Shown piece by piece: positions 10,702-60,813 of a stretch of DNA of 64,000 bases. Location: contig CM097885.1 in NCBI GenBank assembly GCA_044892525.1, positions 33,730,001-33,794,000 on the forward strand, in the 5' to 3' direction. Each line of letters starts with the position of its first letter. The first letter of the stretch is position 1. A model generated the notes under the pieces. The model was not told the DNA's origin. It did not search any database and saw only the letters and a program-made list of their open reading frames with translations. The stretch is from Schmidtea polychroa. Taxonomy: Eukaryota. A program made the translations under genes and the position numbers.

Positions 10702-11646
10702 ATATAACCTCCTGGTCTTCAGGCAGTAACGCCTAATGAAATTTGGAGCACTGCGCTAAAAATTATAAAAAGTCTTAAAAATGCTTTCAGAATTTTATTT
10801 ACAAAAATAAAAAATTTATTTATTTTAAAATAATAATAATAACAATAATATAAAAAAAGTAAAAACTAGAATATTTTGATTTTTTAAAAATATTTTTAAT
10901 ACTTATTAATTTAAACAAAAATAATATCATTCTGCCAGCTCCATTGTTCATAATGTATAACATTGGTCTGGATAAAGTTTAACGTAATTACGTTAATTGA
11001 CCCGTCATTCAGATAGGTAAGTTTTGAACAAAATATAATTGTAAAATGGCTTTTATGTTGAAATTTTTAATTTATTATCATTTATCAAAATTTAATTTAA
11101 AATATTTTTGACAGAAATCTTTGAAAATATTAGTTATAAATCATTTTATATTAAAAAAATAGATCATGTAAATTGATTATATTAGTTTTTGACAATCAAA
11201 TTTTTATGATTTTAATTTTTAAAATTTTAATTGATTCAAATTTTAGTTAAAAATTCTTTTCATATTCAGAGTTTTAATATATAGTATTTCCTATTTCAAA
11301 ATGAGACATTTTTCAGCCTTTCTAAAAAACCGAACTAGTTCTTTAAAAGTTTGTTCAAAATAACATTTTTGAGAAAAATTTGAAAATCTAGAATAATACC
11401 TGTTTGATAATTATCTGAACCAATTTTCAGTATAGAAACCTTTTCCAAAGAAGAAATGGTCTCCTTTCTAAGAAATCCCTTCATCAGAAATACCTTCATC
11501 AGTGCTACCATAAGAATATTTTGTTTTAACCGATGAGATTAAATAGTTCTTCATCCAAATTTTCATTTATTTAAAAAAAATAAATGAATATATGTGCATT
11601 GCGATTTTTGCAAAGATCATAAAAAATGGTATAATAATACGCAACT

Positions 11647-14400: not shown

Positions 14401-14404
14401 TTAA

Positions 14405-14692
14405 TATATTGATGTTTTTTGATACTCACGAATTTTCGACACTGCCTATTTCAAATGAATTTGATCATTATTGCATTATTGCGATTGTATATAAAATTAA
14501 CAATATATATATAAAATTATAAAACAATTGATATAAAAAAAAATCATGAAAAAATAGAAAATTTCATATGCGCTGTATTTATAATTATAAATAATATAAA
14601 ATTAATTAAAAATAGCTTGAAGACTATAAATCAGTGATATATCAATGTTTTTGATATTCACGAATTTTCGGAACTGCCTTTTTCAAGTGAAT
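14405..14692 (-). mobile_element. Hammerhead-variant repeat family 2 (PLE pLTR-like), two partial copies
   Basis: Homologous to 18614-18697, 46495-46680 and 56852-56993; minus strand ATTCAC TTGAAAA AGGC AGT TCC GAAA ATTC GTGAAT at 14656-14692. Confidence 0.65.
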
Positions 14693-18613: not shown

Positions 18614-18695
18614 ATCACTTGGAAAAAGCAGTGCCGAAAATTCATCAAAAAAACATTGATATATTTACTGATTCATAGTCAAGCTTTTTAATAAA

Positions 18696-18697
<2 letters not shown>
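18614..18697 (+). repeat. Family 2 hammerhead-variant repeat, degenerate sense copy
   Basis: tcacttggaaaaagcagtgccgaaaattc...gattcatagtcaagctttttaataaa followed by (TA)n. Confidence 0.6.
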
Positions 18698-18776
<79 letters not shown>

Positions 18777-18781
<5 letters not shown>

Positions 18782-21710
18782 CTGCTTTCCCAAAATTTAT
18801 CAACCGGTTCGCAGTGATATTTTCTTATAAATTTTTTTATTTTTTTAATATTAATATTTCCATCAAACTATTATGGTTTGTCAGAGTAGCAGACTAAGTC
18901 AAGAATATTTAACTATCGTTCATATTCTTTGCAACAATAATGTAATAGGATAAAAGAGAATAAAAAAATAATTCAACGAGGTAAAAATCACTTTTATTTT
19001 ATTTATTCATTTCAAGAGTTACAAAATTTACATAAAAAAAACTGAACATAACAAAAAAATTGTGAAATTGCATATATTAGTAAATATTATTGTTATAAAG
19101 TAATTATATTATTTAAAATATTTCCAAATAGCTAATTGATTTTCAGTATATTCTTTCGGTTTAGATTTTTTAACCCTGGTATCATCTGCCGAATTATGGT
19201 TCCTCAACCAAGTTTTTACATAGGGAACTGCGTTCCAAGTTTCTAATGGACGACCAACAAAGTTTAATGTCATCAAATTTGATACTGTCTGCACTGTTAA
19301 TCTGGCTCTTAAATCAGCAATTATGATGTTCATCAATGAAAATCCTCGTTCTACTTCAGCACTGCTAACGGCAACCGTATTAACCATATTTTTCGCTTTT
19401 TGAATGTTTTCTGCAATTTTACTAATTTGCTGATAGCCATTGTTTATTTAATTTTCATCATAATCACGGAAATCATTCTTATCGATATCAAAATTAAAAA
19501 TTTTTCGAAATTTATCAAAATTCTTTTCGGCCTCTATCCATGGAACTACAATATCTTCAATTTTCTATGTGCTCGGCTCTAGCAAATTGGCTAGCTCATA
19601 AATAATGCTATTATCAATATTTTTTTGTCACTATTTGATCTGAGATGAGAGCAATCCATCAATCTTAATTTCATATTTTTTATGATGCTGTCAATAAGGG
19701 AATCTCTGGGAAGGTTTCCATAAATTCTGTTTTCGACGAAGATAATATTTTTGAATGTTTCAGAGTTTATAACTTCATCCACTTTTTTTTCGTAATGACC
19801 GCGACGATCTTTGAGAATTTGAAAAGCGTTAATTGTTCTTCTAATCAGTTGATCTCCCCTTGCAACATTTATATTTCTAGCTTGAAGAACATTAGATAAT
19901 AGAGAGCACTCCTGTAGGATGTCAATTATTAGAGCTAAATCTACTAGAAAACATTTGTTTTGTAGTCGTTTTGCCAGTCCAGACATTTTTTGGTTAGAAG
20001 AGAACGACGTATACAAAGCAGGGTAGCTCGCCATACAGCAAGAGCATATCTTAGGCTGCATGCAGACCATCTTGGTCCTAACACTCTTCCAATCTTAATT
20101 ATATCAAAACTAAGCTCCTGGGAAATATTATTCAGTTCTTTTTGGTTTTTATTAGATTGATGAAAAATACAATATATTTTGTCCATGAAAACTTTAAAAT
20201 GATTAACCTGTTGTAGACGGTGATTGAGACAGTGCCAAATAATAATATTTGGAAACATCTCTTTCATTCGTACGCTGACTCTAGATTTACAACCGAGCAT
20301 TACGCTAGCACCGTCAGAACAGAATCCTATTAAATTCAGTTTTAAATAATTTGTATCAAATCCAAATAATAATAACAGCAAGCAATACAACCAACAAACT
20401 TTGAAAAATAGTATTCGCATCTTGTGCGTCAAGCTCCACAATATCTACGAATATTATTGGGGATATTGCAGAAGATTCTACTGTAGAAGATTCTACTTTG
20501 ATGAAAACTATAAGCGTTGATTTACTGGAAATGGTACAAATAACAGTACAAATTTTTAGATTATTCTTAATAATCGATATAAACAATTCTTTTTTAGTTT
20601 CTTGCGCGATATGCCCTACTATCTTACTTGCACTATGTCGAGAATGAAGTCCGGTTCCCATGTCCAACCCGTTTTTTACTTGAAGCTCTATTACACTTTC
20701 TATGTCTGTAAACAGTATTGAAGATTCTTGTAGTAGAACTAATAAATTTCTCGTTCATCTTATCGATGCATGATGTAAAAGTTTGTTTTTCAAGTATCTT
20801 GGCATGTTCAACAGCTAGTTTGTGTGCTTTTGATGCAAAATGTTCACTCATTTTTTCCCTTAAAGATGCTTGTTCCACTATTTTGTCTTTCCCCGAAGTC
20901 GTAACTTTACATTTTTTCCATTCTTGAGATATTAGTTTTGATTCCATTTTTAAACAATATTCACATCCCAATTTCTGATTACTGACAAACAGCCCATCAT
21001 ATTTAATTTTAAACTCCTTCAACTGTTTCGCATTCCAACAACTTGGTAAATTATTATTGTCCTCATTTTGGGAACTAGGAATCTCTAGTATTTGTTCCTG
21101 TAAAGTTATTGAAACTGCTTCTGTCTCTGTTATAGTCGACCTGCTATCATTACTTACTGATGTTTCCTCTCTTATTTTTTTCGAGAAATATGTGGTTAAC
21201 ATATTTTGTCTCTTCATCTTCAAAAAATAAAATAGGTATTTCAAAATAAATTATTTAACTTAAAGCATGAAAATAGTTAATTGAACTTACCTTATTAAAT
21301 TTTTTAAAAATCTTCGGTTTTATTAGAAAAATAATTAACTTAAATGTATAAAAACTGAACAGAACAAAACAAATAATAACCGATAAAATGAAATATTTAG
21401 ATTGAACTTTTTCAATAGAAATTAGAAATAGATTTAACTTTTACATATCTATCTATGGTAACTTGATAAAATTTAAAATTTTTTTTATTTTTTTTAAAAT
21501 TAACTGAAAGATTTCTATAAAGTAAAAAATTAGAATCGCAATGAAAACTAGATAAAATTTTCAAACTGTTTATATAAATTTGCACCAAATGGTAAATAAA
21601 TTTTATTTAAATAATTTTTTTTTGCGTATTTTTTTTGACAAAAAAAATAATTTTTTTTCCGCTTATTTTAATAGCCGGTTCGCACGAACCATAAAATTTA
21701 CATCTAACGG
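18777..21710 (-). mobile_element. hAT transposon (KIAA1586/ZNF862-like transposase) flanked by (TA)n
   Basis: TAGGGCTG hAT-type terminus at left; CCGGTTCGCA subterminal motif at both ends; (TA)n on both sides; right TIR missing. Confidence 0.85.
19109..21217 (-). pseudogene. Frameshifted hAT transposase
   Basis: Overlapping ORFs with [28 protein letters not shown] and SSAEVERGFSLMN (hATC dimerisation); ATG at 21217 directly follows a 73-nt GT-AG intron (21218-21290). Confidence 0.9.
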
Positions 21711-24700
21711 TATATATATATATATATATTAGAGAACTAATCTACAATTTTGATATCAATCTTCCGTTAATTTCCTTAAACTAATTATTTGACATCTTTT
21801 TAATTTATATCTGTCATGATTTTATCTATAAATGATTCTCACTGACGCATTTTCTTACATTTTCCAGTCATCTTTTTGGTCTTTGTTGTTCAATATTAAT
21901 TCTATTACTGAATTATTTTCAGATTTTAAATCCTATTATTTCGCCTTTTTGTTTAAATTAAGTGAACTTTCTTATGTCACTAATACTGTCTAGAAAAGAT
22001 AAAACCGTCACATTTCTTCGTAATTCACATAAACAATTAATGCAAAAATTGTTTTCTTTTCAATTTTTGTTAATTATAAACCTGAAAACTTTCTTTGTAG
22101 ATCTGTATTTATATATTTTTCATCTAAAACGAATAATAAATTTGATGAATAAGTGGTTAGTAATCTTATTATTCTATAATTACATTTAAAATTCAATTAA
22201 AAATTAAAAATTACACTTGAATATTTTTTATAGTTCAAACAGTTCATTATATTAACCAAGATGAAAAATATAATCAAATATTTAAAGTTGTTATAAATAT
22301 TTAAATTAAAAAAAAATTATTTGAAATTTAATACTTAAATGATTTTTCAAAATATAAATATTTCAATTAAAATATCAAATGAAATGTAATAAATATATTT
22401 TAATTATTTTTCCAAATTAATTTGGCTAAAACTAAATAGAAGAATTAAAAAGAAATTAACTTAAGTGCGCTGCTTTGTAAATTACTAAGTTATTTTTAAA
22501 TTTTGTTTTTTACCACCAGTGTAATTTCAACTTTGAAATTGAGCATTTTATATGTAGAAAGGGCAGGCGCATTAACAAATATCTCATATAGACTACTGCC
22601 AAGCTCCTCACTAAATAACATTTAAATTTATCCAATTTGTTCGAATGTGATAAAAAGGTTATTTTGTTAATCTGGATCAATATTTTCTTTCTGAGGGTAA
22701 GATCTTCATCTGCAAGGATACACTCAACTTTCATTTTATGCATTGTTTTATAAATTATTTACAAATTTATTTTTAATTTAATAAAATTAATGCAAAAGTA
22801 CTTGTTCACAAAGAACTATTCAGTTAAGTATTGTTGTTAATATTAAACAAGCCTTTTGCTTGTTTAAAATTTAACTAATGCTACCAAGAAATCATCACTT
22901 TATACTTTATTGTTTTTAATGTTAATATATTTTTGGATGGAGGGTGTGTGTTGAAGAAATATTTGAGACCAGATGAGTCACAGGTAAAATCTATTTTGGG
23001 AAAGCTGGAGTTCTTGCGTGTACGCATAAAAATGCACTGCGCTTGTGTTTATATACAACCAAAAATGATAAAAAATAATGATTATAACAATAACTTTTAT
23101 TTAAATAAAATATAAAAGTAATATAATACTTTCAGTGTAGTTTAAATATTTCTGAAAAGTCATAATTTCCTTAGATTTTTTGGGTTTGTCTTTGATTTTT
23201 CTTTAATCAACTTTCCAATTTATCTTTTTTGTGACCCGTTTAATTTCAACTTTACTAATTGTTACTAGTCTTATTAAATTATTCTATTTTTTGATCTTTT
23301 AAGTAAATTTTACTATATATAGAAAATGTTTTGCTTTCTAGAGGAAATAACAAATAAAAATAAATACAATTATAAATAATATAAGAACAGTACAATTGTC
23401 TTAAACCTATCTGACGTTTATAAATAAGGAGGGAAAATTTCTTAATTTTTTGATCTTTGATTGAGTTTTTATTGTGGTAAAAGGTTCAAAATTATCTTTC
23501 TGTAAAATGAATTATTTGCAGTTGCCACAATCCTGAATGTGTTTATGTCAATCTTTAATATAATCCTCAAAAACCATCAAATACCTTTAAGTATAATCTA
23601 TCATTCTTGGTAGGAATTGATAGTAACAATCTTGATGTCAAAACATTTCTGAATAGCAAGTCCTTATACATTGTCCATTGTTATGCTCTGTTAATATTAT
23701 AAGATATAAAATTGAGTTAGAAATTCCCACTCTTCACTTCTATTCACTTCTATTAATACAATAATAAATATTTAAGTATTTAATTCTTAATCTTTGAAAG
23801 GGAAATTAAAATAAAATTCTAATTTAAATTTTTATAAGGATATTTTTAAATAAATTAGCTTTTTGTTTTTAATTCAAATATTTAAAGAATTATTTAAAAC
23901 AAATTATTTAAATATAGACAATGAAATTATGATCTATTTATTGCAGAGACAGATGATAAAATTGACGAATTGTTCAATAGAATATTTAAAAATATTCGAC
24001 TAAAAATCATGAATTTTTTCTCCAGAAAATTATAGGTTTTATTTTAAATCTAATAAAATAATAATTATGAATTATAATCATTGAAGCCACAGCGAACATA
24101 AGCATTCCTTTATGTGCATAAAATTCATGCAAATAAAAGAAAAACAAATTATTGTTATTAAAATTATATTTAAATAAAATGTCAGACAAGCCAGTTTTCA
24201 TTAAAAAATGGTTGACAAACCTTTTTCATCTCAATCAACTTTAGTGATTTTTAAAGAAGTTTTAAATTAATTTTTACAATAAAAGAATATTAGTTTTAAT
24301 CAAATTTGGATCTTGTCAATGTTAAACTTTAAAAATTGAAATAAAAATCTATTATACAATTAATGGAATAATTTTGATGTGGAATTCAATTATCGAATTG
24401 TAAAATTATAAATACACGAGATATCTCAAAAATCAATTAATTAATTTAAAATAATAAAATTATAAAAATTATTATCAGTAAAATATTTTATGTTTTCACT
24501 TTTTCACAATTTCAATAATTTCAATTTTCCTTCCCTTTCAAAAATTATAAATCAAATTAAATTAGACAAATATATAAAATTCTTAAAATAAACCACAAAT
24601 ACTTGACAGTTACAATTATATCACATTAAATTTATAGTTACTTTTATTAACAAAATAATTCTGATTGAAATTATTGCTTTTATAAAAAGAACAATACTTT

Positions 24701-25408
24701 GCTATAAAAATTAAATAATAATAGATTTTAATATAATTTATTTAAAATTCTGGTTATTATTTATAATAAATGATATATATTTATATTCAATATATTAAGA
24801 ATACCATTTATTTTTTTAAAAGGACGACAAAACATCGTAAGATCTATTTATTTTGCCTAGATCATGTTTGGAATTTGGTTTTGAATAAAAATATCAGGAT
24901 TGTAATACATATGGATGACTACCCGTCACCCCCGTTCTTAATCACTACAGACTAAGGTCATTGATTAATAATTAAATAGTAGTATGTATGCAAAGAATGA
25001 TATGTTTGTGTTTGTATTTTCGTATTTGAAGTGGTACATGAAAAACCTATGTTTAAAATGATATGAATGAAAAGTGATGTAATGTAATAATGTACAAAAT
25101 TATTAAATTTAATAAAATAAATATCTTAATTAAAATTTAAAATTTCTTTCATGTTTTAAAATAAAATTCATTTTTTAGTGAAATATATTTTGTTAAAAAT
25201 CTATAAATTATTCAGTTTAAAATATTTTTCAAATAAGCAATTTAAAATCTATATAGTCTTTTTATTGTTACCTGATGATGATGGTGAGTCTGTAGAAATT
25301 TATAATATAAGCAATGCTCGATTGACGTTTTCAAATATTTATATCAAAACCATGTTTTGTTTGTGTTTAAAAATAGAATAACAGTTATTGTAATAACATA
25401 TTTTTTTT

Positions 25409-25750
25409 CGGATGTCTTACACTTGAATTGTATAAACAGCAAATCCCAATAGTAGACTAGTTTAGAGCTTTTGGCTCTTATCAGTTCTATGTAGGATACG
25501 CGAAAATTTCTCTTCATTCCAGGTAAGTATACAATATTGCTGATTAAACTTTATTGCATTCTTTCCCTGGTACACTGAAAATCATATAACTTGCTTATTA
25601 GGTTGGTCACAGAAAATCTGTAAACTTGTAAACATGGCGTATGAAAAATCATAATCACCTCTGCAAACTAAAAAACTAGTCGATACACAGAAATGGTTTA
25701 CAAGTGCGTCCGGTTATTTTTAACATTTTTAACTTATAAAGTAATGTTGT

Positions 25751-25756
<6 letters not shown>
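25409..25756 (-). mobile_element. Retrozyme-like family 1, copy 1 (hammerhead core mutated)
   Basis: Colinear with 37376-37752 and 51907-52160; core at 25449-25490 reads CUGAUAA...UAAA; followed by (TA)n. Confidence 0.75.
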
Positions 25757-25848
<92 letters not shown>

Positions 25849-28770
25849 TATATATATTAAAATAAATATCAAATAAATTATAATAATATTCCGCAAAAAA
25901 GGACATTATTATAAATTACTTTTGATTTTTTTATTTATTCCATTCATTTAAAATGATTTATAAAATATTTTTTGAATTTTTTCGAACCATAGTGGTTTAA
26001 AACTATTTATTTTACTAATATAAAGTAATTTTTGATAAAAATCAAATAACTTTATTAATTTATTTTGCCAAATTCAATTTAACAAATTAAAGTTTTGAGT
26101 TTCCATAGAATATTTGTTTCCATTGTCAATTTAATTCTCTATTAAACCATCTCTATTCTCATTGTTTCATCAGCAAACTTGAATGTCTATCATTTTATAG
26201 CATTGAAACAAAAAATATAAACTTCCACCCAAATAAAAATTTAAAAAATGCGTGACAAATTTCGTTTTAAAAGTTAGCTTTCATTAAAGAAGAAAATAAA
26301 TATTGATATTTGAAAATGTTTCTCAGGAAAATCTGTTCAAAATTCTGAGAGAATTGTTTTATCTGAGTAAATCATCTCTTTAAAAATTTAAAAGTTTTAA
26401 TTTTGTTGGTTTCTAAGTGTTACTTACATCGCTAATCTAATTGTTCACGTAAAAATTAAAATAACAAAAATAATAAACAAATTTAATTTTATTGCTCCAA
26501 AATATCTGAAATTTTATCGATTCGTCATAATTAAATGTCTTCCCTTTAGGCATTTTGAAATTAACTTTTTCTAATAATAATAATTGTTTAATTATATATT
26601 TCAGGATATGCAGTTCTCCATATCTTTCTTACTTTTATTTTATAAATAATAGAATAATAATGTATAATTAATTAGTGAAATTATTCTTTATATATAACAA
26701 AAGCAAGTAATAATTTAGATATTAATATTTATTGGACTATAGATCAAAACAATTTATAAGGTACACGATATTTTGGCACAACCATTATCATTTTGTATCA
26801 ATGATTTCTTTGAAAAGAATTTTATAAAGAATATTTATAAAATTATTTATAATATATATATTTTTTATTATTTAAATTATTTAAAAATTATTTATATTTT
26901 TTTTAAGAATAAAACTCAAATTCTTATATATTGCCAGTTGATATAACTTCATTTACATAATTTATTTTAAAAATTTTCGGTAAGAAATAAGAGGAAATTA
27001 ATTAATTATAAATACAACAGTATAATGTGAAAGCCATTGACGCCATCAAGATGTAAATACTGATATCCTTAAAATTAAATTAAAAAGTTATTTATTTTTT
27101 TATTTTGAAAAAGTTGGCTTAATGATATTGAACTAACTTGTTCTTGACACAAATAACAAATTTTCTTTCCAAGTATTCATTTTCCCTTGCAAGAAACAAG
27201 TTCCAACAGTATAATGTGCCTGACTTATTTCAATTACATAATAAACATATTTTTATAATAAACATATTATTAAATACCTTACAATGAAAGGTTCATTATT
27301 TACTTATTATTTGAATTATTGAAAGTTTTTAAATATTTTTAAAAAATTTGTCTCACTGTTACTTTAAATTTTCACTTAAAATGGTAATTACTTTGTAAAC
27401 TATTAAAAAGGATTTGATTACACTTTATTTATTATTTTTATTAATCTTATATTTTTTTATTCTAAATCATTATCTTTATATTTATAATAAATATTAATAA
27501 TAAATACCAGTTCATAGTCAAACTATTTAATAATAATCTCAATTTAATAATAATTTGGTATATAAGTAAATAAAAACAAATCACTCCAAAAATGATCAAC
27601 TATAATTACTTGTCAACTGTTTTCATTTTTAGTTCTGTTTAAAAATAATATCCGGTAATTCCTTTGATTTTGTTTTGATGTACTGTAAATTAATAATTTT
27701 TATTATTTTAATTTGATATTACATTACGCTATTTGTTTAGTTCTGATATCAACTGAAATAATTGATTTTTGAAATTCTGAAATTAATAAATGAATTTATA
27801 AAATAAACTAATGGGAATTTAAATTAAAAAATTCTTTTTAATACCAATGGCAATTTTCTTAAATAATAAATAAATAAAAATCAATTTTGTTTTGATGACT
27901 TTAGGAATAGTAATCAATCCATTCAATGTCTTCCTGAAAATAATGTTTAATGTAAATATATTTAAATTTAATATCCAATATTATATGGATAGCATTTTAA
28001 AATAAAAGTCCATGAATCTGTCATCACCATTAAAGCTATATTTTCATTTAACTGCATGTTTAATTATTCAATATTTAGCCGAAATATTTTTAATTTACAT
28101 TATAATCTCTTAAAAAGACATTAATTTGAACTATTAATACGAAGATAATACAAGATGAGGGTCGAACCCTTTTAGTAATCATTTACTAGTAATAAACCAT
28201 TAAAATAAAGAATAAACAAATCATTCTTTTATTTCAAAAATAATGATATAAAAGAAGAATTATCATCAAAAAAAAGTTATTATATTATTTTCAATAGTAT
28301 AATTTTCCAGATATTTCTCACATCTTATTTAATCATGTATATTATTTTTATTTGTTAACAAAACGTTATCTACTGACTGTTTAAAGTAATATATTTAAAT
28401 AAAAAGCATCATTTACAAACAAACAAAACTGAAGTGTATCGTAAATTTCATAATACCTTAAAATAAAAAATATCTTTTATATATTTAAAGCTATTCTAAA
28501 TAATTATTAAAATTCAAAAGTATATTCAAATTAATTTAGTATCTGCAATTCAGTTGTTGAAGAATAGAGAAACTTTAATGACTTTCACTAAAAAGATTAT
28601 TTGTTATTACAATAGTGTTAGAAGTGGACTTGAACTGACATCTCAATTAAGAGAAAATCAAAAACAAAAACTACAGAAGTAAATTTAAATTTCCGTATCA
28701 ATTCACCAAAAATTACAGATATAATGACACAAACACTTAATAATCACATTTATGAAAATATACATGTCGG

Positions 28771-34843: not shown

Positions 34844-34932
<89 letters not shown>

Positions 34933-35014
34933 TAAAGTGATGATTAATTGGTAGCGGCATATTTTATTTAAAACAAACATAGAAAAAGGCTTAAATTATC
35001 ACTTTACTATTTTA

Positions 35015-35071
<57 letters not shown>

Positions 35072-37094
35072 TATAATTTCAAGCATAATTTCAAAGAACT
35101 GTAAACAGTAATCTCTATAAATTTTATAATTTGTTAATTTCCTTGCTCAATAAGTTCATTATAAATTATAAATTGTTTCAATATAAACAATTCATTAATT
35201 TAAGATAATAAAACAATATCTAACTTTGAAATTTATCGCTATTTCTTATGTGAAATTATTAAATTAAAAATATATATTTCTAATTAATACATATCATGAA
35301 TAAAATCAACAATTTCATATGCAACAATCTAATAAAACATATTTCTGTTAGATGATTTGGGCCCAATCCTTTACACTTATGATTGGCATTAAAATTTTAT
35401 TGAATTATTGTCTCCCAACTAAACAATTTTATCATATTCAATAAAAAAAACATTAAATATCAATAAAATTATTCTATTTAAACGAATAAATACAATATTT
35501 ACAAAATTTTTAACGACCTTTTACATTTACTTTCTTATCAAATTCTGTCCATATATTGTTGCACTAAATTTTCGACCACATCAAAGTGTTACCTAAAATG
35601 ATTTCCTAAAAACGAACAAGTAAATAGATGCGTTGACTCGGCCACATTGGATCCTAAACCTTTTAAGCTTTATATTGATTTTCATATTTCAAATCACAAA
35701 TTAACAACTTTATTTAAACAAAATATTAAAAGTACAAATTGAAATATTAATTTTGAAACCGTTAATATTAATTAAATTCATCAGCTTACTTATAATATGA
35801 CAAAAGCTAGAAAATTTCAACAAGAATCGTCACGTTAATTCGATAATTATTTATAATAAAATTTCGGGACGAAAATTCCCAAACGAACCCCATAAAACTG
35901 TCATTAATTCAAATATTGACAAACCAATTTACGAACGAAATTAAGCAGTTGAAATATTAAAAAAAAATCAGAAGCCGATATATCTGACAGTTATTAATGC
36001 AAATTGATAAACAATTCCAGTTCTGACTCTTAATTATCACAATGTTACGAAGAGATACAATTTTAATAAATTTATAAATTATAAATTGACAACATGAACT
36101 GACATGAATTCAATATTAATAAAATTTAAATTAAAATTATTTAAAAATTTTTTAAAAATTTGAAAATTTATTTCATTTTTATAAAATATTGTTTATAAAT
36201 TAATTGATAAATCATATTAAATTGCGCATTAAAACATTTTTTATTTATTTTATTATTTTAATTTTATTATTGTTATCTATTATTATTGTTTTAATTATTC
36301 ATATAATATTACTACACCTGTGACTCTCAACGGACACTAAGTGACCTAGAAAGAGTTATAGGTGACAATTTTAAAAAAGTACTAAGGTTTATAGAAGTCA
36401 ATGAAAATAAACAAAATATTAACAGAATATGAAAATAAATCAAAGGTAAATAAATAATAAAGTATTTTGCTTAATACAGATTATCATTTAATTTAATTAA
36501 ATTTTACAAACAAATTCTTAACTCGAAAGTCATTTCGAATATTGAAGACGGCATTTTATCCTAAGAAAAATGGAAAGAAATAATTCAAGTAACAATACGT
36601 AAGTGTTTAAATGACACTGATAAACACAAATATCTACTTCCTTTTTTCTTTTTTAATAATATATTATGTGATTATAAGAAAAGGTTAATTAAAAATACGA
36701 AATGAAAAATTAATAAAGTATAATTCTCGCTATTATTTTCATAGTTTCACATACATTAATAAAGTAAAGTACTATTACCAATAATTATGAATTACTAATA
36801 AGAATTTTCAAGATAACAGTTTCATTATATTCATATAAATTCCATCCTAGCATTGTTTATAAATGATCAAATAATAAAACAAACTAACAAAATTTAAAAT
36901 AAAACCAAAACAGCTGGAGACTAAAAGAAACAATACAATTGTTTTATATGACTTATTTTAATAACAAAAATAATACAAATAATTAACTTACACAATAAAG
37001 AGTTTATAATAAACTTTTACTGCAAAGAAGTAAACATTAATAATTCAAACATCGCTTTATTTTTAGCATTATATTATAATGGAGTTAATGTTAA

Positions 37095-37374
<280 letters not shown>

Positions 37375-37375
37375 T

Positions 37376-37752
37376 ATAAAGTAATGGTGTAAAATTCTTT
37401 TTTGTCGGATGTCTCACTTGAATAGAATAAACAGTACACGCTTTATGATACCTAGTGCAAATCTCAATAGTAGACTAGTTTCGAGCTTTTAGCTCTCATC
37501 AGTACTATATAGGAGACGAGAAGATTTGTCTTCGAGCCAGGTAAGTATACAATATTACTGATTCAACTCTATTGCATACTTTCCCAGGTACACTGAAAAT
37601 CGCATCACTTGAAAATTAGCTTGGTCACAGAAAAAATCTGTAAACTTGTAAACATGGCGTATGAAAAATCATGATCACCTCTGCGGGCTAAAAAATTAGT
37701 CGATACACAGAAACTATTTACAAGTGCATCCGGATTACCTTTAGCATTTTAT
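37376..37752 (-). mobile_element. Retrozyme-like family 1, copy 2 (near full unit)
   Basis: About 380-nt unit between (TTA)n and (TAA)n; contains an intact hammerhead. Confidence 0.8.
37467..37508 (-). ncRNA. Minimal type I hammerhead ribozyme
   Basis: AUAGUA CUGAUGA GAGC-UAAAA-GCUC GAAA CUAG UC/ UACUAU: perfect 6-bp stem I, 4-bp stem II, GUC cleavage triplet, palindromic ACUAGU stem III. Confidence 0.88.
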
Positions 37753-37812
<60 letters not shown>

Positions 37813-37847
37813 TATTATTATTATTATTATATATTTAAATTTTATAG

Positions 37848-43137: not shown

Positions 43138-44132
43138 TTAACAGATATAACTAAGTAAATTGAACTCATTTAAAGCATGACGTTGATATCGTCCTATTCG
43201 TTCATTAGATCCCTTTTTTCTGTAACATGTTGGTCTTTCTTGGGAATTTGTCAAGAATCCTTGTATCATTGGCAATTCTTGTTCATCATCGGCGATTATT
43301 AATAGATTATATTTCCATTCAACTTCAAGAGAATGTGAAGATAATGTAACGAAATAGCCAATCAGTGAATATTTGAAATATCCAGCGGGATCATAAATCG
43401 TCAGTAATTTAGTTAAATCTTATGAGAATTTTTCATTCGAACATGAAGCATTGAGAGATAGAAACTATATTTTTGTGTGATTCAATTTAGGAATGAGTTT
43501 AGGTCCATCGTTTTTAGACACGAGTTTTGGGCAGTTTCCGTTAATATATCTTGCAATTGTTGATGCCTGTTCTACATTTACATATTTTGAAATTTTGAAT
43601 ATAGATTCACCGCATAGATATATCGATTTACGGAGTTGAGATTTTGAACTTTCTTAAAGTTCATCATAACATTTATGTGAAGAGAATTCTTCAATGAGAA
43701 ATAAGAAACGAATGCTGTCACGGTTACGAGATGTTAGAAATAATAATTTATATTCGAAACTTTAGCTGAAATTATCTGATGTAAATTCCTCTTCTTCATT
43801 CTCTATCAAATGATATTTCAATTGAAATGCAATAGATTTAAGAACGCATTTATCATCCGTTTGTAAAGGTCCATTTAAATTAAATTGATAGATGTTAGCA
43901 CGAAACTTTTCATCATTTTTCAAATCTTTTAACAAACCTTTAATTAAAAGAGTTTTCTCACAACCTCTTTTACCAATAATCATCATTGAAATACTTTCAC
44001 CGTGTAAATAAGCATTTATGATACTGTGGATAATTCTACTTTTATAATTTTCATATCCAAAGAAATCATGATTTGAGGTATAGATCCTACTACGCAAGGA
44101 TTTACAATTTTGTACATGAAATTTGAATTCAT
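43138..44132 (-). pseudogene. ORC4: Intronless ORC4 (origin recognition complex subunit 4) pseudogene inside a TRPC intron
   Basis: LHGESISMMIIGKRGCEKT...NLNGPLQTDDKCVLKSIAFQL matches ORC4 LHGESNSVLIIGPRGSGKT...HLNGLLQ; the same frame continues through a Walker B-like FLIEEF to DEQELPMIQGF with four premature stops; ATG at 44132 is out of frame; Walker A G>E. Confidence 0.85.
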
Positions 44133-44830
44133 ATTTTAAAATATCGAAACTAATTCAATAAATTTTGAAAGCAAATAACTTTTATTATAATTACGAAATA
44201 AAATTTAGTTTATTCACCAAAATCAGGAATATTTAAACAATTCTTCCGAAGTCAATATTTAAACAATTTTCACAAAATTCATTAAATTTTCAACATAAAT
44301 ATAAACGACAGCAATCATCATTAGTGGAAACCAAATTAAATTAAATTTTTAGGTTCCATTGTTATCACCACAACAAATGGAAACCAGAGGGTGCAAACTG
44401 CTCAATCATCCAAAACAAAGCGGATTAGTTGCAATTATCATTTATGAATAACTGGTATAGTCATAAAATTCTATTCTAAAATAAAACTTTGAACTTCCCG
44501 ATGTTTTAAGTATATATTTATGAATATACTTTAGCATTACTACAATTTTTCACATTCATTATATGACTAGAAGAAAAGAAATAATTATTGAGCATTATTG
44601 TTTCAATATTATTAATTTTTACAGAATTTCAGCAGAAAAATAATTTATTTTTTAATAACTTAAATATCGATAACTCAAGAGAGTTAGGGTTCTGAAATAA
44701 AAAGTAATAATACTGAAATTGCCAATTAAAAAATAAATATTAATTTTACCGTGTAGGTTTGATTAGTTTTAATGATATAAAATATGATAAATACCAAGGA
44801 CTCAATAATCCAATATCTATTTCAATTTAC

Positions 44831-46393: not shown

Positions 46394-46494
46394 GTAAATT
46401 TTTCAATTATATTACTTTTTAATATATTTAATATATATTACATTTAAATATAATTTTCAGCATCATTGAATCAGTATATATATATATATATTAA

Positions 46495-46680
46495 AAAGTG
46501 AGCTTGAAGACTATAAATCAGTAATATATCGATGATTTTTGATACTCACGAATTTTCGGCACTGCCATTTTCAAGTGAAAAAACATCGATATATTACTGA
46601 TTTATAGTCTTCAAGCTCTTTTTAATAAATTCAATGGAAAAAAAATCAGTAGTGAAATTGGTATAAAAAAGTTCTTATAA
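46495..46680. mobile_element. Family 2 repeat, inverted (foldback) pair between TA tracts
   Basis: gagcttgaagactataaatcagtaatatatcgatg is inverted around the hammerhead-like core; AATAAA in the + arm. Confidence 0.7.
46546..46578 (-). ncRNA. Variant minimal hammerhead (U3-A8 core)
   Basis: UCAC UUGAAAA U GGC-AGU-GCC GAAA AU UC/ GUGA; stems I and II pair; AAUU palindromic stem III. Confidence 0.6.
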
Positions 46681-49452
46681 TATATATATATATAAAAACA
46701 TAAAATGCAAGAGGCTGAAAGTTTTGCGCTTAATGATTTGTCAAACAATTCCATTTTCAATATTTAACTATCGACTTCCAATTATATTTCTTGTTCAATA
46801 TGATCATTTGCAGAACCAAGAAAATCAATCCTAAATATTGGTTCCAAGCTGATCAGTGGTGAACTGATGCCATCTTTGAAAACTGTTATGATAAAAATAT
46901 ATTGTATGAGGATTCAATTTATGACTTATTTGGAACTTCACTATATACCCAATATTACTAAGTAATTATTATATGTTGGATGTTAGAATGAATGTGTTTG
47001 CTGAAAACAACCTCTTTCAATTTTTATATTAAATTTTGCAATTTAACAAACATTTTTCATGTAAATATTAATTAATTGAAATTTAAAAAGATATTCTGAT
47101 GTGATTTGCGTAGTCTTTTTCAAGTTAATTACATATATAATATTTTATAATATTTAAAATTTATATTTAATGGACTGATGATTTATCTATATCTTGCCCT
47201 ATTTAGTTTGCAGATTCTGCTTAAGTTAAACTAAATCAAAGAAGACATATTCCGGGATAAACACTTCCGGCAAAATCAAATGCGAAATTATTTACCTTCT
47301 AAATTTCTATAAGGAAAAATAAAAATTCCTCCATAACAAATATAAACTAGTTAATAACTAAATTAATAAAAATATTCGTAGAATAATGAAATAATTTAAA
47401 TTTATGCATTCTAAAACTTCAGAAAATTATATATTAAACAATAAATTAATTAAATTAAAAATAAATCAAATAAAATATTACATATATATAATTAATTTCA
47501 TTTATAATAACAAATATTTGAAAATCAATTATAAAATAGTTCCTGATGACAGTTTTATGAAAACATAAATTCCGAAATCTTTACTATTTTAAACAAATTA
47601 TATTTATAAATTTATTTTGTTTACAATTCACTGACCAAAACCAATTTTTGATTTATTGTATTAATTCGTAATAGTTATTTAATGTCTGATTTACAAGCAA
47701 GATTAAGCAGCTTTTGTATTTACAGGAGTGATTTAAAAATAAAGTTAAAATATAATGAAAAATATTTTTTCTAATTTCAATTTTTCAAGTAATTGATAGT
47801 TTTGATAACTTTAAAATACTTTTCGGTATTCATTTCTGTATTTGTTTATTAGAAATACATAAGTAATGAAGAGTTATTACCATTTAGAATTTAAATATAA
47901 AGAGACAAAAGGTAACATTCTTTTGATTTTAGGACGATGATATTAAAACAACTTAATCATAACATTTTTATTACATTTAGTTGATCACATTTGCTAAACC
48001 ACAATGAATATTTAACCAATAATAGAAAAAACTATAAAATCCCCTGAAATGTATCTATAAGTTAAAAATATTTATGTTGAGGACTCAATATTATTTTGAT
48101 TGCTCAACCTTCACTAGTGGTTCCTATATAAATTACTGACAACAAATCTGTTTAAAATATTTATTCAATATCAAAAATTACCAAATAACAATCAATTCTT
48201 TCAGTTCAATAACTTGATCGATAATATTTCAAGAAATTTGAAAATATGTGCCTGTTATGTCGTTCTTATTTGTTGTGAATATATGCTATATTATTCGTGC
48301 TTAAACTTTGTGTAGAACGTTTTGTCTGTTCTATTTTATTATGACCTTTTTCAGCTAATCTTAGATAGGTTTTATTAAATTTTATTTTTTTAATAAGAAA
48401 GCTAATTAAAAGATCTTTAAATATTTCATTCTTTAATGATAAAAAATGACATTTTTGTTGCTTGCACATTTTTCTTGTTTTGTTTCTTCTTTTCATTGGT
48501 GTTTTTATATGCAACAAATAACATAGGATATATAATTTAAAAGTAAAACAATTGAATAAACGGCAGCAATGTGAAAAAGACAGTTGTATACTGAGATAAC
48601 TTTTTAGAATTCTGAATTTTAACACTTATTATTATTAAAAAAAATTTAGATTTTATATTTTTTAAATTAAGGAAATGTTTATGTAAAGTGATTGGAGGAT
48701 AAATCAATTTTAAATATTTCTGAAATTTTTGAATTACCCATATTATGGGTACTAAGTACGAAGTGCTTAAGTTTTAACCGCGCTACTGTCTCTAATATCT
48801 ACAATTTTATCAAAGTTTTCTTACATCTTGTTCAAACGTTAATTTTCTTTTGAATCACTAATTAACGGTACGTTGAAATAATAAAGAAACCCAATGAATG
48901 TAATCATCACAAAATGACATATATAAATGAACAAATTTGAGTTCGTTCATGCATTGGTGATTATTATAATTTTATTTGTAAACAGAAATATTAAGTAAAA
49001 AAGATTTAAATAAACAAAATCTAAAACTTCAATTTGGTTATTTATTTAAAATCAATTTAATTGACGAATATTTTAATAGAAATTAATTAATATTTATGAG
49101 TCGAGTTAATCTATTTTTGTTAAAGATGTTAATTTCCTCACAGTATTGAATAAATAATTTTAATTATCCAAACAAAACAAATGACTGCCATAAATTATAA
49201 AAAAGTAATATAAATCAAATTATAATCAGAAAACCTTTAGTAAAATAGATAAATTAATTCATTTTTAAAAATAAAATTTTTCTTTCTTATTTTCTTTTAT
49301 CCAAAATATAACTTATGCATATCCTTTTTTGAGGTATTAATATTCAATACAGGTCAATTTTATTTACAAACTGTTAAAAAATACATGTCAAACATCTATA
49401 AATCTTTTGGGTAAAAAACAATGTCTTGTAGTAATAATTAAAAGAAATAAAA

Positions 49453-50052
49453 TGTTGAGGTCTGTAAATTAAAATGAAATTTAGGTTAATAAGTGAAGAG
49501 AAAAGACAAATAAAAGCGGGATCATGCACAGAATTGATAGTAAAGGAAAGTGTGATGGAAGCAGTATTAGAAAATGCCAAAAGCTATTACGAAAGGCAAG
49601 AATTCGGAAATCCGAGAAAAATCAATAAATTGAAAAATCATCGAAATCGAATTGGGAAAACGGGACAGGTATAGATTAGCTAATGGTCAACAAGATGATG
49701 GTTAGGGATTTATCAGAAAATCGTTAGGAATGGTCGAAAAGCATTCAAATGTGTAAAAACAGAAAACGTTAATTAATTAATTAATTGGTTAATAGAAAAC
49801 CCGAGCTAATGGGAAACCCGAGCCAATGGAGAACCCGAGAGATGAAGGAAACTCGAGCTGGGTAAACAAGAAGAAAAGTAAACAGAAGGAAGATTTGGGC
49901 CCATTAGCTTGACACAATGATTAATTGGAAAAGAGCAAGTAGAAGATAGTGCGTATAGAAAGGCCGGAAGGGCCATTAAATATCTTGGTTCGTTGGACCA
50001 TTAGCAGATACGTGGAAGCAAATGTCAAGTGAAGGATTGGCTCGGCAATAAC

Positions 50053-50056
<4 letters not shown>
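49453..50056 (+). mobile_element. Truncated LTR, inverted relative to 10038-10701
   Basis: Begins TGTTGAGGTCTGTAAATTAAAAT; colinear reverse complement of the 9619-10701 LTR; ends at an (ATT)n tract and a family 3 element. Confidence 0.85.
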
Positions 50057-50084
<28 letters not shown>

Positions 50085-50085
<1 letters not shown>

Positions 50086-50294
50086 AAACAATAAAGTGAT
50101 AATTTAAGCCTTTTGCTGCAAATAATGTATTTAATGAAAAAATTTTCGACTATAAGATAGTCCTTGAGATTGACAAGGACTAACTTATAGTCGGAAATAT
50201 TTTCATTAAATACATTATTTGCAGTGAAAGGCTTAAATTATCACTTTATTGTTTTAAATAATAAATGCTGATACCAAGAAATCATCACTTTATA
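50085..50294. mobile_element. Family 3 head-to-head palindromic hammerhead-variant element in (TTA)n
   Basis: About 80-bp arms around GAGATTGACAAGGACT; homologous to 51675-51795, 55840-56052, 34931-35015 and 22845-22904. Confidence 0.75.
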
Positions 50295-50295
50295 A

Positions 50296-51359: not shown

Positions 51360-51674
51360 GTTAGTTCAATCCTTTTTTAAATTTTAATAATAAAAAATAA
51401 TAATAATTATTTGAATATTTTACAAAATGTCATTTTAGTATTTTTTGACAATTTGTCAATGATGTTCCCAAATTGTAAAGATGAGTTGAAATGGTGGGTT
51501 GTAGATTAATTGGAGACATAATGGTCCGTCTCAAAGGTTGTCGAGGGCGTTTGCGGTTAAATGATTATAATTATATAATTTGAAAAATATTTGAAAAGAA
51601 AGATGAAAAAACTAATGATCTAATAAGAATTTTTTATCTAAGCGAACAAGACCTAATAATAATAATAATAATAA

Positions 51675-51794
51675 TATAAAGTGATGATTTCTTATTATTT
51701 ATTATTTAAAACAAAAAAGTGATAATTTAAGCCTTTTGTTACAAATAATGTATTTAATGAAAAACTTTCGACTATAAGATAGTCCTTGTCAATC

Positions 51795-51795
<1 letters not shown>
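51675..51795 (-). repeat. Family 3 single arm in (TAA)n
   Basis: Minus strand AGA TTGACAA G GACTAT CTT ATAGTC GAAA followed by the family tail. Confidence 0.7.
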
Positions 51796-51884
<89 letters not shown>

Positions 51885-51906
51885 TAATAATAATAATAAT
51901 AATAAT

Positions 51907-52160
51907 AATGGATTAAAATATATTTTTACGGATGTCTAACAATAAAATAAGATAAACATTACAAGCTCTGTGATACCCAGTGCAAATCCCAATAGTAGAC
52001 TAGTTTCGAGCTTTTGGCTCTCATCAGTACTATGCAGGAGACGCGAAGATTTCTCTTCGCGCCAAGTAAGTATACAATATTGCTGATTCAACTCTATTGC
52101 ATACTTTACCAGTAACACTGGAAATCACATCACTTGCAAATTCGCTAAATCACAGAAAAA
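51907..52160 (-). mobile_element. Retrozyme-like family 1, copy 3 (partial)
   Basis: Colinear with copies 1 and 2; follows (TAA)n. Confidence 0.78.
51992..52033 (-). ncRNA. Minimal type I hammerhead ribozyme
   Basis: AUAGUA CUGAUGA GAGC-CAAAA-GCUC GAAA CUAG UC/ UACUAU; differs from the 37467 copy only in loop II. Confidence 0.88.
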
Positions 52161-55826: not shown

Positions 55827-55839
55827 TAATAATAATAAG

Positions 55840-56050
55840 TATAAAATGATGATTTTTTGGTAGCAGCATTTATTCTAAAACAATAAAATGATAATTTAAG
55901 CCTTTTGCTGCAAATAATGTATTTAATGAAAGAATTTTCGACTATAAGATAGTCCTTGTCAGGAGATTGACAAGGACTATCTTATAGTCAAAAATTCTTT
56001 CATTAAATACATTATTTGCAGCAAAAGGCTTAAATTATCATTTTATTGTT

Positions 56051-56052
<2 letters not shown>
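55840..56052. mobile_element. Family 3 head-to-head palindromic hammerhead-variant element in (TAA)n
   Basis: Near-perfect arms of about 85 bp (55877-55961 / 55968-56052) with the junction at the hammerhead 5' boundary. Confidence 0.8.
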
Positions 56053-56107
<55 letters not shown>

Positions 56108-56851
56108 TATTATAAAATATTATGATTATAACAGAAAAATTTCAAAATATATCGTAAAACGAATGTACAAATGGTGCTTTCTTATAATTAAATCTTTGCA
56201 ATGTATGTTTAATTATTTGTTCAAAAAATAAATATTAATAGAAAAATGATAAATTGACCTTTACGAAAAGAGTCTATAGTATAGGCTATTTTGTAATTAG
56301 GGTGATTGATAATTATATTTCTAATGAAAAATATAAATAAATGAATTGCACAAATTTATTTATGTTATATAGAAACAGTAACTGGATTAAGTCAATCTGA
56401 CGATGTTGTTGATAGTGAGTTGCGGCATATTGAAATGTTGACATTTACATATGTTTCAAATATGGGCGTCTAACTTTACAATTGAGATTTAAATAAATAT
56501 TTTTTCAATTGATAAAATTTCATATGAATTGCGCTCTATTTCAATGCTCACTGGAAATATTTATATCAAATGATAATTTGAGTTCGTTATAAATTTATTA
56601 TATCCGAGGCTATTGTTTTGTTACAATAAAAAGTTCAGTCAAGCATTACATTATCAATTGTCAATAAAGTTATGTAATTTCAAATTCAATTTCGTTTCAA
56701 ACCGACTTTTTCATTGAAATGTTTATTAGTAAAAATTACAAAATAAATTTAAAAGACAATTTTATTTCTAAAAAAAATATAAGTTTCCTTAATTGTTAAT
56801 TATTTTTTAAAATAAAAACAAACATTTATTTAAAAAATAATAAATAAAAGT

Positions 56852-56993
56852 CAATTGAAAAAGGCAGTGCCGATAATTTGTGAATATAAAAAAAAACCGA
56901 TATATTTACTGATTTATAGTCAAGCATTTTTTTAATAAATACAATGTCAATTGAAAAGAAAGCAGTGGTAAAATTTGAAAATAGTTCTCATAA
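56852..56993 (+). repeat. Family 2 repeat, degenerate sense copy
   Basis: tcaattgaaaaaggcagtgccgataatttgtgaa...gatttatagtcaagc...aataaa; tail matches 46620-46680. Confidence 0.6.
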
Positions 56994-57119
56994 TAATAAT
57001 AATATTAATAATAACAATAATTTTATTAGTAAAAATTACAAATTTCCTTAACGTAGACTTAACTTTTTGAGGAAAACAAACATTTTTAATTTTCTTTTAA
57101 TAATAATAATATATAATAA

Positions 57120-57915: not shown

Positions 57916-60813
57916 TAAAATATTAAATGACTTTAGTTTCACTTTATTTTTAGAATATTGATAATGATTCATAAATTGAGATCAATTGAAAATAAAAGCG
58001 ACGGAGGTAAAAAAGAATCAAAAGTCACTAAAATAAACATTAAATTCTTTTTGAGGAAAATGACACAAATTCGATAATCAAATAGAAAATGATTGAATTT
58101 GAAATTTAATAAAACAAATTAAATAAATGAAATAATAATAATATTTCAATTGGTTACAGTAATAATTTTATTTTTTTATTTTTTGTTTTCAATGGTACTT
58201 TTAGAAAATATCATTTTTATGATATATTTTTATGAAATATTTATAAATGTTCATAGTTGAAATTCACAATTATCCGGATTTAGACTTAATATAAACAAAT
58301 AAATAAGAAAAGAAAAGCTGTTATCAGATATGATATCAGGAACTTTGAAATATGGCTTCAAAGTTGCTCAGAAAGTTCCGTAGTTTTCATTAGGTCAATT
58401 GTCTTATTCATATTAATACTACTTGCATTGAAATCATTAAATGTTAATTTTTTATAATACATTTTAATTCATAAAAAGCTTGGGTTACTCAATTATTCTC
58501 ATTACCCTTACTATCAAAATATCAAAATTGTTTCTAGAAAGATTTTCCACTGAAATTTGGTCTTCCAATTAAGGAGAACTGTTTGTTTAAAAACAGAATT
58601 TTATATTTAAATTACATAAAATTAATAAGTAATTATTAATTAGACAAGTATTATAATATCAGTTTTATAATATAAAATATATTTAATGCAGGATATTCTT
58701 ATAAGCTCTATAATATAGAGGCTACAAAGCCATATTATAAATTAACTCTTAATAATGTCTGCGATAAAAAATTTAAATAATTTCTTTAGACTTTAAATTT
58801 TAATTTAACTTAATTTAATTTTTTTCATTGATTATTCCAATTTATATTTTTTTCACTACTATTTTATCCTAAAACCATTTGCTTTTATTTATTTTATTAT
58901 AAATTGTATAGTAGATATTTTATTTATTTAAAATTAGATTAAAACAATCCGATAATTTTAATATTAATTTTCGTATTTCTGACTAAGAGTCACTAATATG
59001 TATGGGCAAATGCGTAGAGCTCTATAAATATTATTCTACTTATATACAAATTTAATCTGGCAAAGGATTTGTAATTAATTAAAAGTTATAAATAATTTAT
59101 GAACAAGCTAATTGAGCATGAAACCTAGATAAGATTTATAGAAGAATATTTCTTTTCTAACTATTTCTAGATTGAATTCATTATTTTTACAAATTTTGAC
59201 TTTTCATTATTGATAATTATTGATAATTATTGATAATTATTCAACTAATTTGTAAAATTACATGTGAACTCTCTCAATTATGTTAAAAGGAGCATCGAAA
59301 AACATCAAATTTGATTTAATTATAAGTTTAAAACAAAAATAGACATGAAAATAATATAAATTTCTCCAGTAATAATTATAAAAAAATAAAAATAAAAATA
59401 TTTAAAGATAAAAAAATGAAATTTAAATTAATTTATTGTCATCTAATTTTCTCTAATTGATGATAAATAAACAAGAGTTTATTAATATTTAATGAAATGT
59501 GTTGTTTAAGTGATTATAGGGTCTTTAGTTTATTATTATTAATAAATCATAATTTATTAAATATTTTAGTTCAATCATTGAAGCTCATAAATTGTGAAGG
59601 GTGATAATTTATTAATACAACCATTCAGCACACCAGTCCTGTACACCATTAATGGTTAGAATGAGCTTCTCCTATTTTTTATTGAACAAAATTGAAATTA
59701 TCTATTTCATCCATTCTCTAAATGTATCCCAATTAAATATCTAAATTAATTTATATTATATATGAGAAAAATATTTATCACTGAAGAAATTATTTATTAA
59801 AAATTTTATATTTAAATGGAAATCTCCTCAAAGTTTTGTTAACACAAACCGACCGTTGTATATTGACATTAATAAGTAGATAAATATTTGGACATGTTTC
59901 ATCTTTTTATTAAATTAAATTAAATTTTAAACCTTCAATGAAAATATATATATATATATTTTTAAATATTCATTTTAATGAAAATGATAATTATTGGAAG
60001 TCATAGTGATAGCATTAATATGAAAAATTACAACGTATAATAACATTTATTAAAAAACAAAACTAGATAAAATTTGATAATTGTAGAAATTCCACAAGTT
60101 AAAATGATAATTATTTAATTAAACAATAAAAAACAAAACTCGAACAATATCAGAGAATATTAAAGGTTTTACTTTAATTAAAAGATTAATTAAATAAAAG
60201 GTCAAAATAGAAGTATAAGAGAGATGATAAAATGTCTTTAAAATAACCATTTGTCTAAATATAATGTAAAAGAGATAAAGTTTATGGGAAATATTAATTA
60301 AATTTATAATGGATATATAACGTTCAATCAGTTTAAACAATATTTCAATGAAATTATAACAGTTAAAAATATCACAAACATTTTACAATAAATACATTCT
60401 TAGTATCTATTTTTAATTATTTGAGGTTATATAAGATCAGAAGCTATATTAAATCAAATAAATTAAAATAGGCGATCTTTAGATCTTTTTTTATTCGGGA
60501 AAACTTGGAGATAAATATATAAAAAATCTTCTAATAATTTTGGAAATAAAATATTTTCAAATTGAAAGAAGTTCCTAAAAGGTGTAGATGTTAAAATTAG
60601 ACCTTATTAATTACTTATCGTCAGAGAGAAAAACATTACTCATATTTTTGTTATATGGATTAAATTAATATTTAATTCATATATTGTAATTTAAAAGTTT
60701 TTATTGTAAAGAATTTAAAATTAACATAATTTAAAATTGTTTCAATAATACTTATTTTTTTTGAATTATTTCTTTTAACTATTTTTTATTTTATAATTTT
60801 ATAGAAATATAAC

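Follow-up and report, generated by a model that had tools for sequence, protein, structure and literature searches.

The repeat at 37374..37757 of the window (the whole 64,000-nt stretch of DNA that was analysed) probably belongs to a retrozyme-type family that is moved by a Penelope-like element (PLE), and we put the probability of this reading at roughly 0.8. A non-LTR retrozyme is likely, and is a better fit than a solo pseudo-LTR (pLTR) of a PLE. The complete route, in which a tandem transcript gives rise to a circle that a PLE copies into microsatellites, stands at about even odds.

Copies of the repeat and their surroundings

The window is AT-rich, with a GC content of 19-30% per 2 kb. 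Self-comparison with a word size of 7 gave three copies of the repeat, all on the minus strand, and no fourth copy in the 64 kb. The pairwise identity was 84.8-86.4%; copy 2 is 86.4% identical to copy 1 over 294 nt and 85.2% identical to copy 3 over 256 nt, and copies 1 and 3 are 84.8% identical over 178 nt. The initial annotation had described three copies in one orientation, each abutting a microsatellite, and both observations were reproduced. The shared orientation, antisense to the host gene, is expected by chance in 1 of 8 cases and was set aside as evidence.

Copy 1 (25398..25760, minus strand) is one unit long, is opened at another point of the unit (about 37397 in copy-2 numbering) with a terminal overlap of 1-4 nt, and has a 23-nt deletion behind the ribozyme. 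It lies upstream of the first matched exon of a TRPC-like gene. Copies 2 and 3 both lie between matched exons of this gene, and are intronic. Copy 2 (37374..37757, minus strand, antisense to the host gene) is also one unit, running from 37374 to 37750, and is either 4 nt short of the period or has a 6-nt terminal repeat (TTATAA) combined with a small deletion. Copy 3 (51910..52160, minus strand) is truncated at the 5' end, has its 3' end at about copy-2 position 37385 and retains an intact hammerhead. The start of copy 1 had to be moved to the left, from 25409 to about 25398-25401. A 21-mer that had been reported at the start of copy 2 and the end of copy 1 was found there with 20 of 21 letters identical, or 22 of 23 when extended.

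The TRPC-like channel gene is on the plus strand and is represented by seven exon matches between 31728 and 63724, with best hits in flatworms. One exon shares 76-84% identity with named proteins of trematodes, cestodes and monogeneans, and about 68-73% with most of those from molluscs, annelids and brachiopods. A flatworm is accordingly the likely host, and the evenness of the distances suggests a free-living one. The end of copy 2 is followed, after about 100 nt, by one of the exon matches.

All three copies adjoin a microsatellite of period 2 or 3. The RNA 3' end of copy 2 meets a (TTA)n tract at 37091..37374, and its RNA 5' end meets (ATA)20 and then a short (ATT) run in inverted orientation (37754..37830), so that the microsatellites on the two sides have opposite orientations. 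For about six repeats the 5' tract (37754-37830) then returns to the other orientation, which may reflect a small inversion at the 5' end created at insertion. A (TA)51 tract (25756..25857) lies at the RNA 5' end of copy 1, and a (TAA)38 tract (51795..51909) at the RNA 3' end of copy 3, where a half copy of the hairpin family described below also adjoins it. Such tracts, with 10 nt added, make up 4.2% of the window, which gives a chance of about 6e-4 for three randomly placed copies. A partial repeat in the 3' flank of copy 1 had a score of only 26-27 and was left as chance.

The unit was regarded from the outset as non-coding, and no frame of at least 100 aa was found inside any copy. Among the frames that overlap the copies the only Pfam match was sub-threshold (E 0.006) and concerned a frame consisting mainly of microsatellite.

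The hammerhead ribozyme

A strict type I hammerhead descriptor matched twice in the window, in copies 2 and 3, compared with no match in each of 100 block shuffles, in agreement with the earlier assignment of a type I hammerhead to the minus strand of two copies. The ribozyme of copy 2 occupies 37467..37508 on the minus strand. Its stem I pairs 37508-37503 with 37472-37467 (AUAGUA/UACUAU), the core CUGAUGA is at 37502-37496 with C3 at 37502, stem II with its 5-nt loop is at 37495-37483 (GAGC/GCUC) and the core GAAA is at 37482-37479. The palindrome ACUAGU, which had been proposed as the stem III region, is at 37479-37474. With C17 at 37473 the cut is predicted between 37473 and 37472, exactly where it was first placed. 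The hammerhead of copy 3 is intact, with C3 at 52027 and C17 at 51998 on the minus strand. A loose descriptor gave one further match, at 11487, with stems of 5 bp and 2 bp (shuffle mean 0.07). The core CUGANGA, the GAAA and the UH cleavage site are present in copies 2 and 3 and fail in copy 1, where the hammerhead is predicted to be dead because of two core changes (G8 to A and G12 to U) and a mismatch in stem I.

Helix I is 6 bp long; helix II, of 4 bp, directly follows A9; and helix III has 1-2 bp with a palindromic loop. Exactly such helices are covered by the definition of the canonical metazoan type I hammerhead in Cervera and De la Pena 2014 (PMC4209133). The 'minimal' hammerhead of PLEs, as described there, has a longer helix II, a shorter helix I, an extra nucleotide between A9 and 10.1 and little or no helix III, and the PLE example listed for the planarian S. 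mediterranea in the supplement is of this minimal type. Judged from its helices, the ribozyme appears to be of the canonical metazoan type and not of the PLE minimal type. The term 'minimal' used in the initial annotation was therefore abandoned. The canonical type in turn favors a retrozyme over a PLE pLTR.

The best Rfam model was Hammerhead_HH9 (RF02275), with 25.3 bits (E 3.5e-4 on 377 nt) and 23.9 bits. Since these scores are below the gathering score of 52, the unit is outside the Rfam HH9 family. Loop II aligns with the HH9 loop, and stem I continues past an internal loop in the fold of copy 3; both features bear on a possible tertiary contact between loops 1 and 2. Across the family, 23 polymorphic positions lie outside the ribozyme and none inside 37465-37508 (p about 0.04, among 40 of the 46 table rows), which is suggestive of conservation of the ribozyme. 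Folding of the three-copy alignment was uninformative: the covariation term was unfavorable (+1.89), and the ribozyme helices showed no compensatory changes.

Folding of the ribozyme strand

The double hammerhead, when forced, had energies of -18.6 and -18.8 kcal/mol, compared with about -2 for two monomers with helix III closed and about -13 for two open monomers. On the basis of this difference, cutting is predicted to depend on the dimer, and a lone monomer is predicted to cut poorly. The core was mispaired in the unconstrained folds of all three copies. When the core was held unpaired, the double hammerhead formed on its own in copy 3; copy 2 was still without it when its core was held open. 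Circular folds of the ribozyme strand had z scores of -3.9 for copy 1, which is clearly stable, and -1.6 for copy 2, which is not (60 shuffles each), compared with -1.7 and -0.2 for the opposite strand.

Abundance and head-to-tail continuity

A count of the unit genome-wide had been suggested as a check. When copy 2 was aligned at 80% likeness to contigs of four of 18 public runs of the organism (X1, X2, X5 and X7), matching contigs numbered 2,488, 6,905, 3,086 and 259, all four runs being positive; the small-share runs X8-X10 were left aside. So many distinct matching contigs indicate that the repeat is a large, varied, high-copy family. The summed depths, which are not copy numbers, reached 0.9, 3.0 and 1.1 million in X1, X2 and X5.

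The unit was also claimed to be circularly permuted or derived from head-to-tail arrays, and the permutation was borne out. Copy 1 itself contains a head-to-tail junction, and the contigs gave a head-to-tail period of 380-381 nt. A back-going joint from 37750 to 37378, with eight letters between, had a depth of 1,979 in X1 (38-68 for the long pieces listed). At least five back-going joints were present in X2, two of which run through the breakpoints of both copy 1 and copy 2. In X7, a run that may be of RNA, a junction contig had a depth of 915, and the contigs cover the whole unit and reveal neither RNA ends nor strand; neither the coverage nor the junction is counted as a sign of transcription or of circles. 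On this reference a circle would in any event produce no joint at the cut site. No head-to-tail joint was present among the joints listed for X5. Furthermore, loose ends behind 37750 enter the unit's own start in at least 11 contigs each in X1 and X2, and the share of contigs that continue into unlike sequence is 0-0.01. The window holds monomers only, and the organism's contigs are too short to span two ribozymes. The end of the unit continues into its own start, and this is head-to-tail continuity, not an array of two ribozymes; no locus with two ribozymes in succession was seen, and all of the joints could derive from monomers that were opened at other points.

Copy 2 differs from nearly the whole family at 17 positions (by count, in 40 of the 46 rows), and for this reason appears to be a decayed copy. 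Near the ribozyme, copy 3 has the majority letters where copy 2 deviates. The three copies in the window are probably dead-end offspring of the family.

Two other positions of the unit stood out in the contigs. At 37427, 29 contigs of X1 exit the unit, and the sequence that follows is unlike it (agreement 0.55, median length 255 letters). These exits could mark a second cluster of 3' ends, 30-50 nt short of the main one and resembling a PLE tail, or else a break in the alignment caused by an indel. At 37683, 23-31 contigs each in X1, X2 and X5 go on with related but different sequence, pointing to a subfamily. A motif search of metagenome and viral contigs gave 0 matches, which says little since these collections are not animal genomes.

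Insertion ends and proposed route of spread

In copy-2 numbering, copy 1 has its right end at 37396 and its left end at 37398; the letter at the middle position is supplied by both flanks alike, and the overlap may be up to 4 nt. The length of copies 1 and 2 deviates from one unit by about 6 nt at most; their openings are about 23 nt apart, so that the 5' end moves with the 3' end. Unit length in two of three copies has a chance of about 0.003 under uniform truncation, a value that comes from three copies only, with ends blurred by AT-rich flanks. The terminal overlaps are only 1-6 nt long and the ends lie within microsatellites, the criterion for a target-site duplication being more than 4 bp. 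The 3' ends of the three copies are 75, about 88 and 99 nt behind the cut, the values of 99 and 75 belonging between them to copies 1 and 2. The anole PLE is reported to start reverse transcription 85-92 nt behind its ribozyme cut (+26 vs +111-118; Frangieh et al., PMC11167929).

The following route is proposed. Arrays, or read-through across them, would provide a multimer RNA. Neighboring ribozymes are predicted to pair through ACUAGU and to cut after GUC as a double hammerhead, and by analogy with coral, mussel and axolotl a host ligase would close the monomer into a circle. Circles are described as the main RNA form in these three animals, the ones tested (PMC7229834). A PLE endonuclease would nick (TA)n or (TAA)n; a bias to microsatellites is typical of several PLE clades (PMC8557442). 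On the circle, the RT would prime within the AT-rich linker, at a distance of 75-100 nt behind the cut. Copying that ended at its own start would leave the permuted one-unit copies 1 and 2, and copying that ended earlier would leave the 5'-truncated copy 3.

A reverse transcriptase that went once round an RNA circle would yield one-unit copies, and a linear multimer combined with microhomology could also leave them. Because circles are expected to give cDNA longer than one unit in the published model (PMC4209133, PMC7761336), the stop at one unit is a step that we infer. In vitro, ribozyme cleavage is dispensable for the anole PLE, uncut RNA is its main template and the priming site is not homologous to the target (PMC11167929), and these results count against parts of the circle model. 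The more specific idea, that exact one-unit, differently permuted monomers are the footprints of target-primed reverse transcription round a circular RNA by a PLE enzyme that stops at its own primer and has a 12-nt end word as its signal, is correspondingly tentative and, on our estimate, has the odds against it.

The possibility was considered that the template is instead a linear read-through transcript of a tandem array, copied by the same PLE helper, with the junctions falling in the microsatellite-like AT-rich linker and the ribozyme being a passenger or a processing aid. Both breakpoints are indeed in the linker, where alone the unit is similar to (TA)n or (TAA)n, and the terminal overlaps are short. 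The acceptance of uncut RNA by the anole PLE points the same way, as does the finding that only one of nine Xenopus retrozyme dimers was cleaved in vitro and the other eight were left uncut (Li, Clavereau and Pollet 2026, bioRxiv 10.64898/2026.07.22.740005). The joint shift of the 5' and 3' ends by about 23 nt is not explained by a linear template as such, although target matching could produce it. The good preservation of the ribozyme across the family also argues, weakly, against a linear template, and the predominance of circles in the three tested animals (PMC7229834) does so as well. A linear template is the main rival reading, if a rather unlikely one.

It is improbable that the copies are solo pLTRs or internally deleted stumps of an autonomous PLE and not a self-propagating RNA. 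The clustering of three 3' ends 75-99 nt behind the ribozyme is PLE-like, the bias to microsatellites would be expected, and among 57 Xenopus retrozyme families there are 24 with matches in Repbase, where PLEs account for 21 of the 22 entries concerned (Li et al. 2026). However, the end of the unit leads back to its start with a period of 380-381 nt and no intervening frame, and the ribozyme is canonical, in contrast to the minimal type described for metazoan PLEs (PMC4209133). The initial annotation had suggested a search for an autonomous element with RT and GIY-YIG domains; a Pfam search of 91 of the 133 frames of at least 55 aa, including all 51 within 4 kb of a copy, revealed neither domain in the window. 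Similarly, no RT-GIY-YIG frame next to the unit was found among the loose ends listed in the organism's contigs, though an exit into such a reading frame could hide outside these. Descent of the unit from a pLTR is itself compatible with the retrozyme reading. Even less probable is a spread at the DNA level, by which a satellite-like array would shed one-unit DNA circles that integrate at fragile microsatellites by microhomology, without reverse transcription. An integrated one-unit circle should also yield permuted unit-length copies with short terminal overlaps, but this route leaves unexplained the conserved ribozyme, the confinement of the breakpoints to about 25 nt of a 381-nt unit, the 5' truncation of copy 3 and the better fold of the ribozyme strand. 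The reading as a retrozyme moved by a PLE is retained in what follows.

Comparison with known elements

Animal non-LTR retrozymes have been described in coral, in mussel (350-390 nt) and in axolotl (330/350 nt), and platyhelminths are already among the carriers of retrozyme-like repeats (Cervera and de la Pena 2020, PMC7229834). The families of Li et al. 2026 range from 51 to 972 bp, with dispersed monomers and homology to pLTRs; a family is called 'active' there if two or more units follow one another and each has a complete hammerhead. The present family resembles the animal non-LTR retrozymes in that it is non-coding, of similar size and below 50% GC, with a canonical type I hammerhead, head-to-tail continuity, dispersed monomers and a PLE as the proposed helper. 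The unit of 380-381 nt, with a GC content of 0.35 and 0.31, is inside the retrozyme bounds of about 150-450 nt and less than 50% GC, and no long terminal repeats are visible in the 381 nt. The weak palindromic helix III is shared with HHR_Amex1 of axolotl, and most of the tested invertebrate ribozymes are said to cut as monomers (PMC7761336).

There are also differences from these retrozymes. No sequence relative of the unit was found beyond the organism's own runs. Exact one-unit permutations at microsatellites are absent from the accessible parts of the published descriptions that were compared. Moreover, circles are known from coral, mussel and axolotl, and in the present family arrays, cleavage and circles are predictions. 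The accessible text of PMC5680766 and PMC6155905 names no planarian, and neither planarian retrozymes nor permuted monomers of unit length were the subject of any paper in the literature search; supplementary family lists may still include the family. The unit is probably another example of the animal non-LTR retrozymes, for which the link to PLEs is already in print.

The canonical metazoan type I hammerhead (Rfam clan CL00010, best model Hammerhead_HH9) shares with the unit the full core, a helix I of 6 bp, a helix II of 4 bp and a short palindromic helix III, and loop II can be aligned with that of HH9; the helix III loop of the unit is shorter than the one in HH9. Sm-alpha of S. mansoni is cited as a flatworm example of the canonical metazoan type I hammerhead. 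The pLTRs of endonuclease-bearing PLEs are comparable in their 3' ends shortly behind a hammerhead, their 5' truncation and their microsatellite or AT-rich targets (PMC4209133, PMC8557442, PMC11167929). Unlike them, the unit closes on itself and is without an RT-GIY-YIG frame, a long helix II, a short helix I or an extra nucleotide after A9.

A hairpin family with a shared 12-nt word

A second repeat family in the window consists of hairpins of about 220 nt. The full copies, at 50080-50295 (minus strand) and 55835-56056 (plus strand), have near-perfect arms of 86-90 bp between (AAT)n tracts, and partial copies are at 34925-35015, 51670-51795 and 22860-22928. One arm has a tail of about 40 nt. 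The turn lies at roughly the same place in both full copies, so that the hairpin may be spreading as a unit. A search for a hammerhead core in this family was negative. The inverted arms and the tail are reminiscent of PLE insertions, for which an inverted copy with a 30-40-bp tail has been described (PMC8557442).

A 12-nt word at the junction of the ribozyme unit (37375..37386, and also 25735-25746, plus strand) is identical in 11 of 12 letters to the terminal word of the hairpin family. The exact word occurs six times, compared with 0.13 expected, always in the ribozyme and hairpin families, whose repeated copies are not independent. The post hoc chance of the match between the families is 3e-4, or 0.03 without the microsatellite-like letters. 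The word is a candidate end signal for an enzyme common to both families. Since copies 1 and 3 end short of it, and the ribozyme unit and the hairpin family have no other homology beyond the 12-13-nt word, it is treated as a lead only.

Other features of the window

A third short repeat family is represented at 14402-14693, 18615-18708, 46475-46682 and 56848-56995; several copies are near (AT)n and some are internally inverted. An inverted pair of about 600 nt, 86% identical, is at 10038-10636 and 49490-50056. Several overlapping broken frames at 19109-21250 (minus strand), which had no hAT-type Pfam match, resemble a decayed hAT-type transposase. A P-loop ATPase fragment at 43762-44154 (minus strand), antisense in an intron of the channel gene and with weak Pfam matches only, may resemble an origin-recognition subunit. 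At 60805-61684 (plus strand) there are broken gag-like frames that include a zinc knuckle (PF00098, E 8e-6). Rfam matches to rhtB at 55930-55999 stem from a palindrome and were rejected. The tRNA scan of the window found none, and a bacterial promoter scan is not applicable here.

Significance

The main value of the family lies in its insertion footprints, as the step from circle to DNA has so far only been proposed for retrozymes and PLEs. If the tentative account of the one-unit copies is true, these footprints would be direct evidence for that step, and the 12-nt word would be a helper-specifying motif of the kind that animal retrozymes reportedly lack, according to the 2020 review PMC7761336. 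The end word shared with the hairpin family could lead to the helper element. Moreover, since a single genome has very many copies, the way in which their 5' and 3' ends vary together would discriminate between circular and linear templates.
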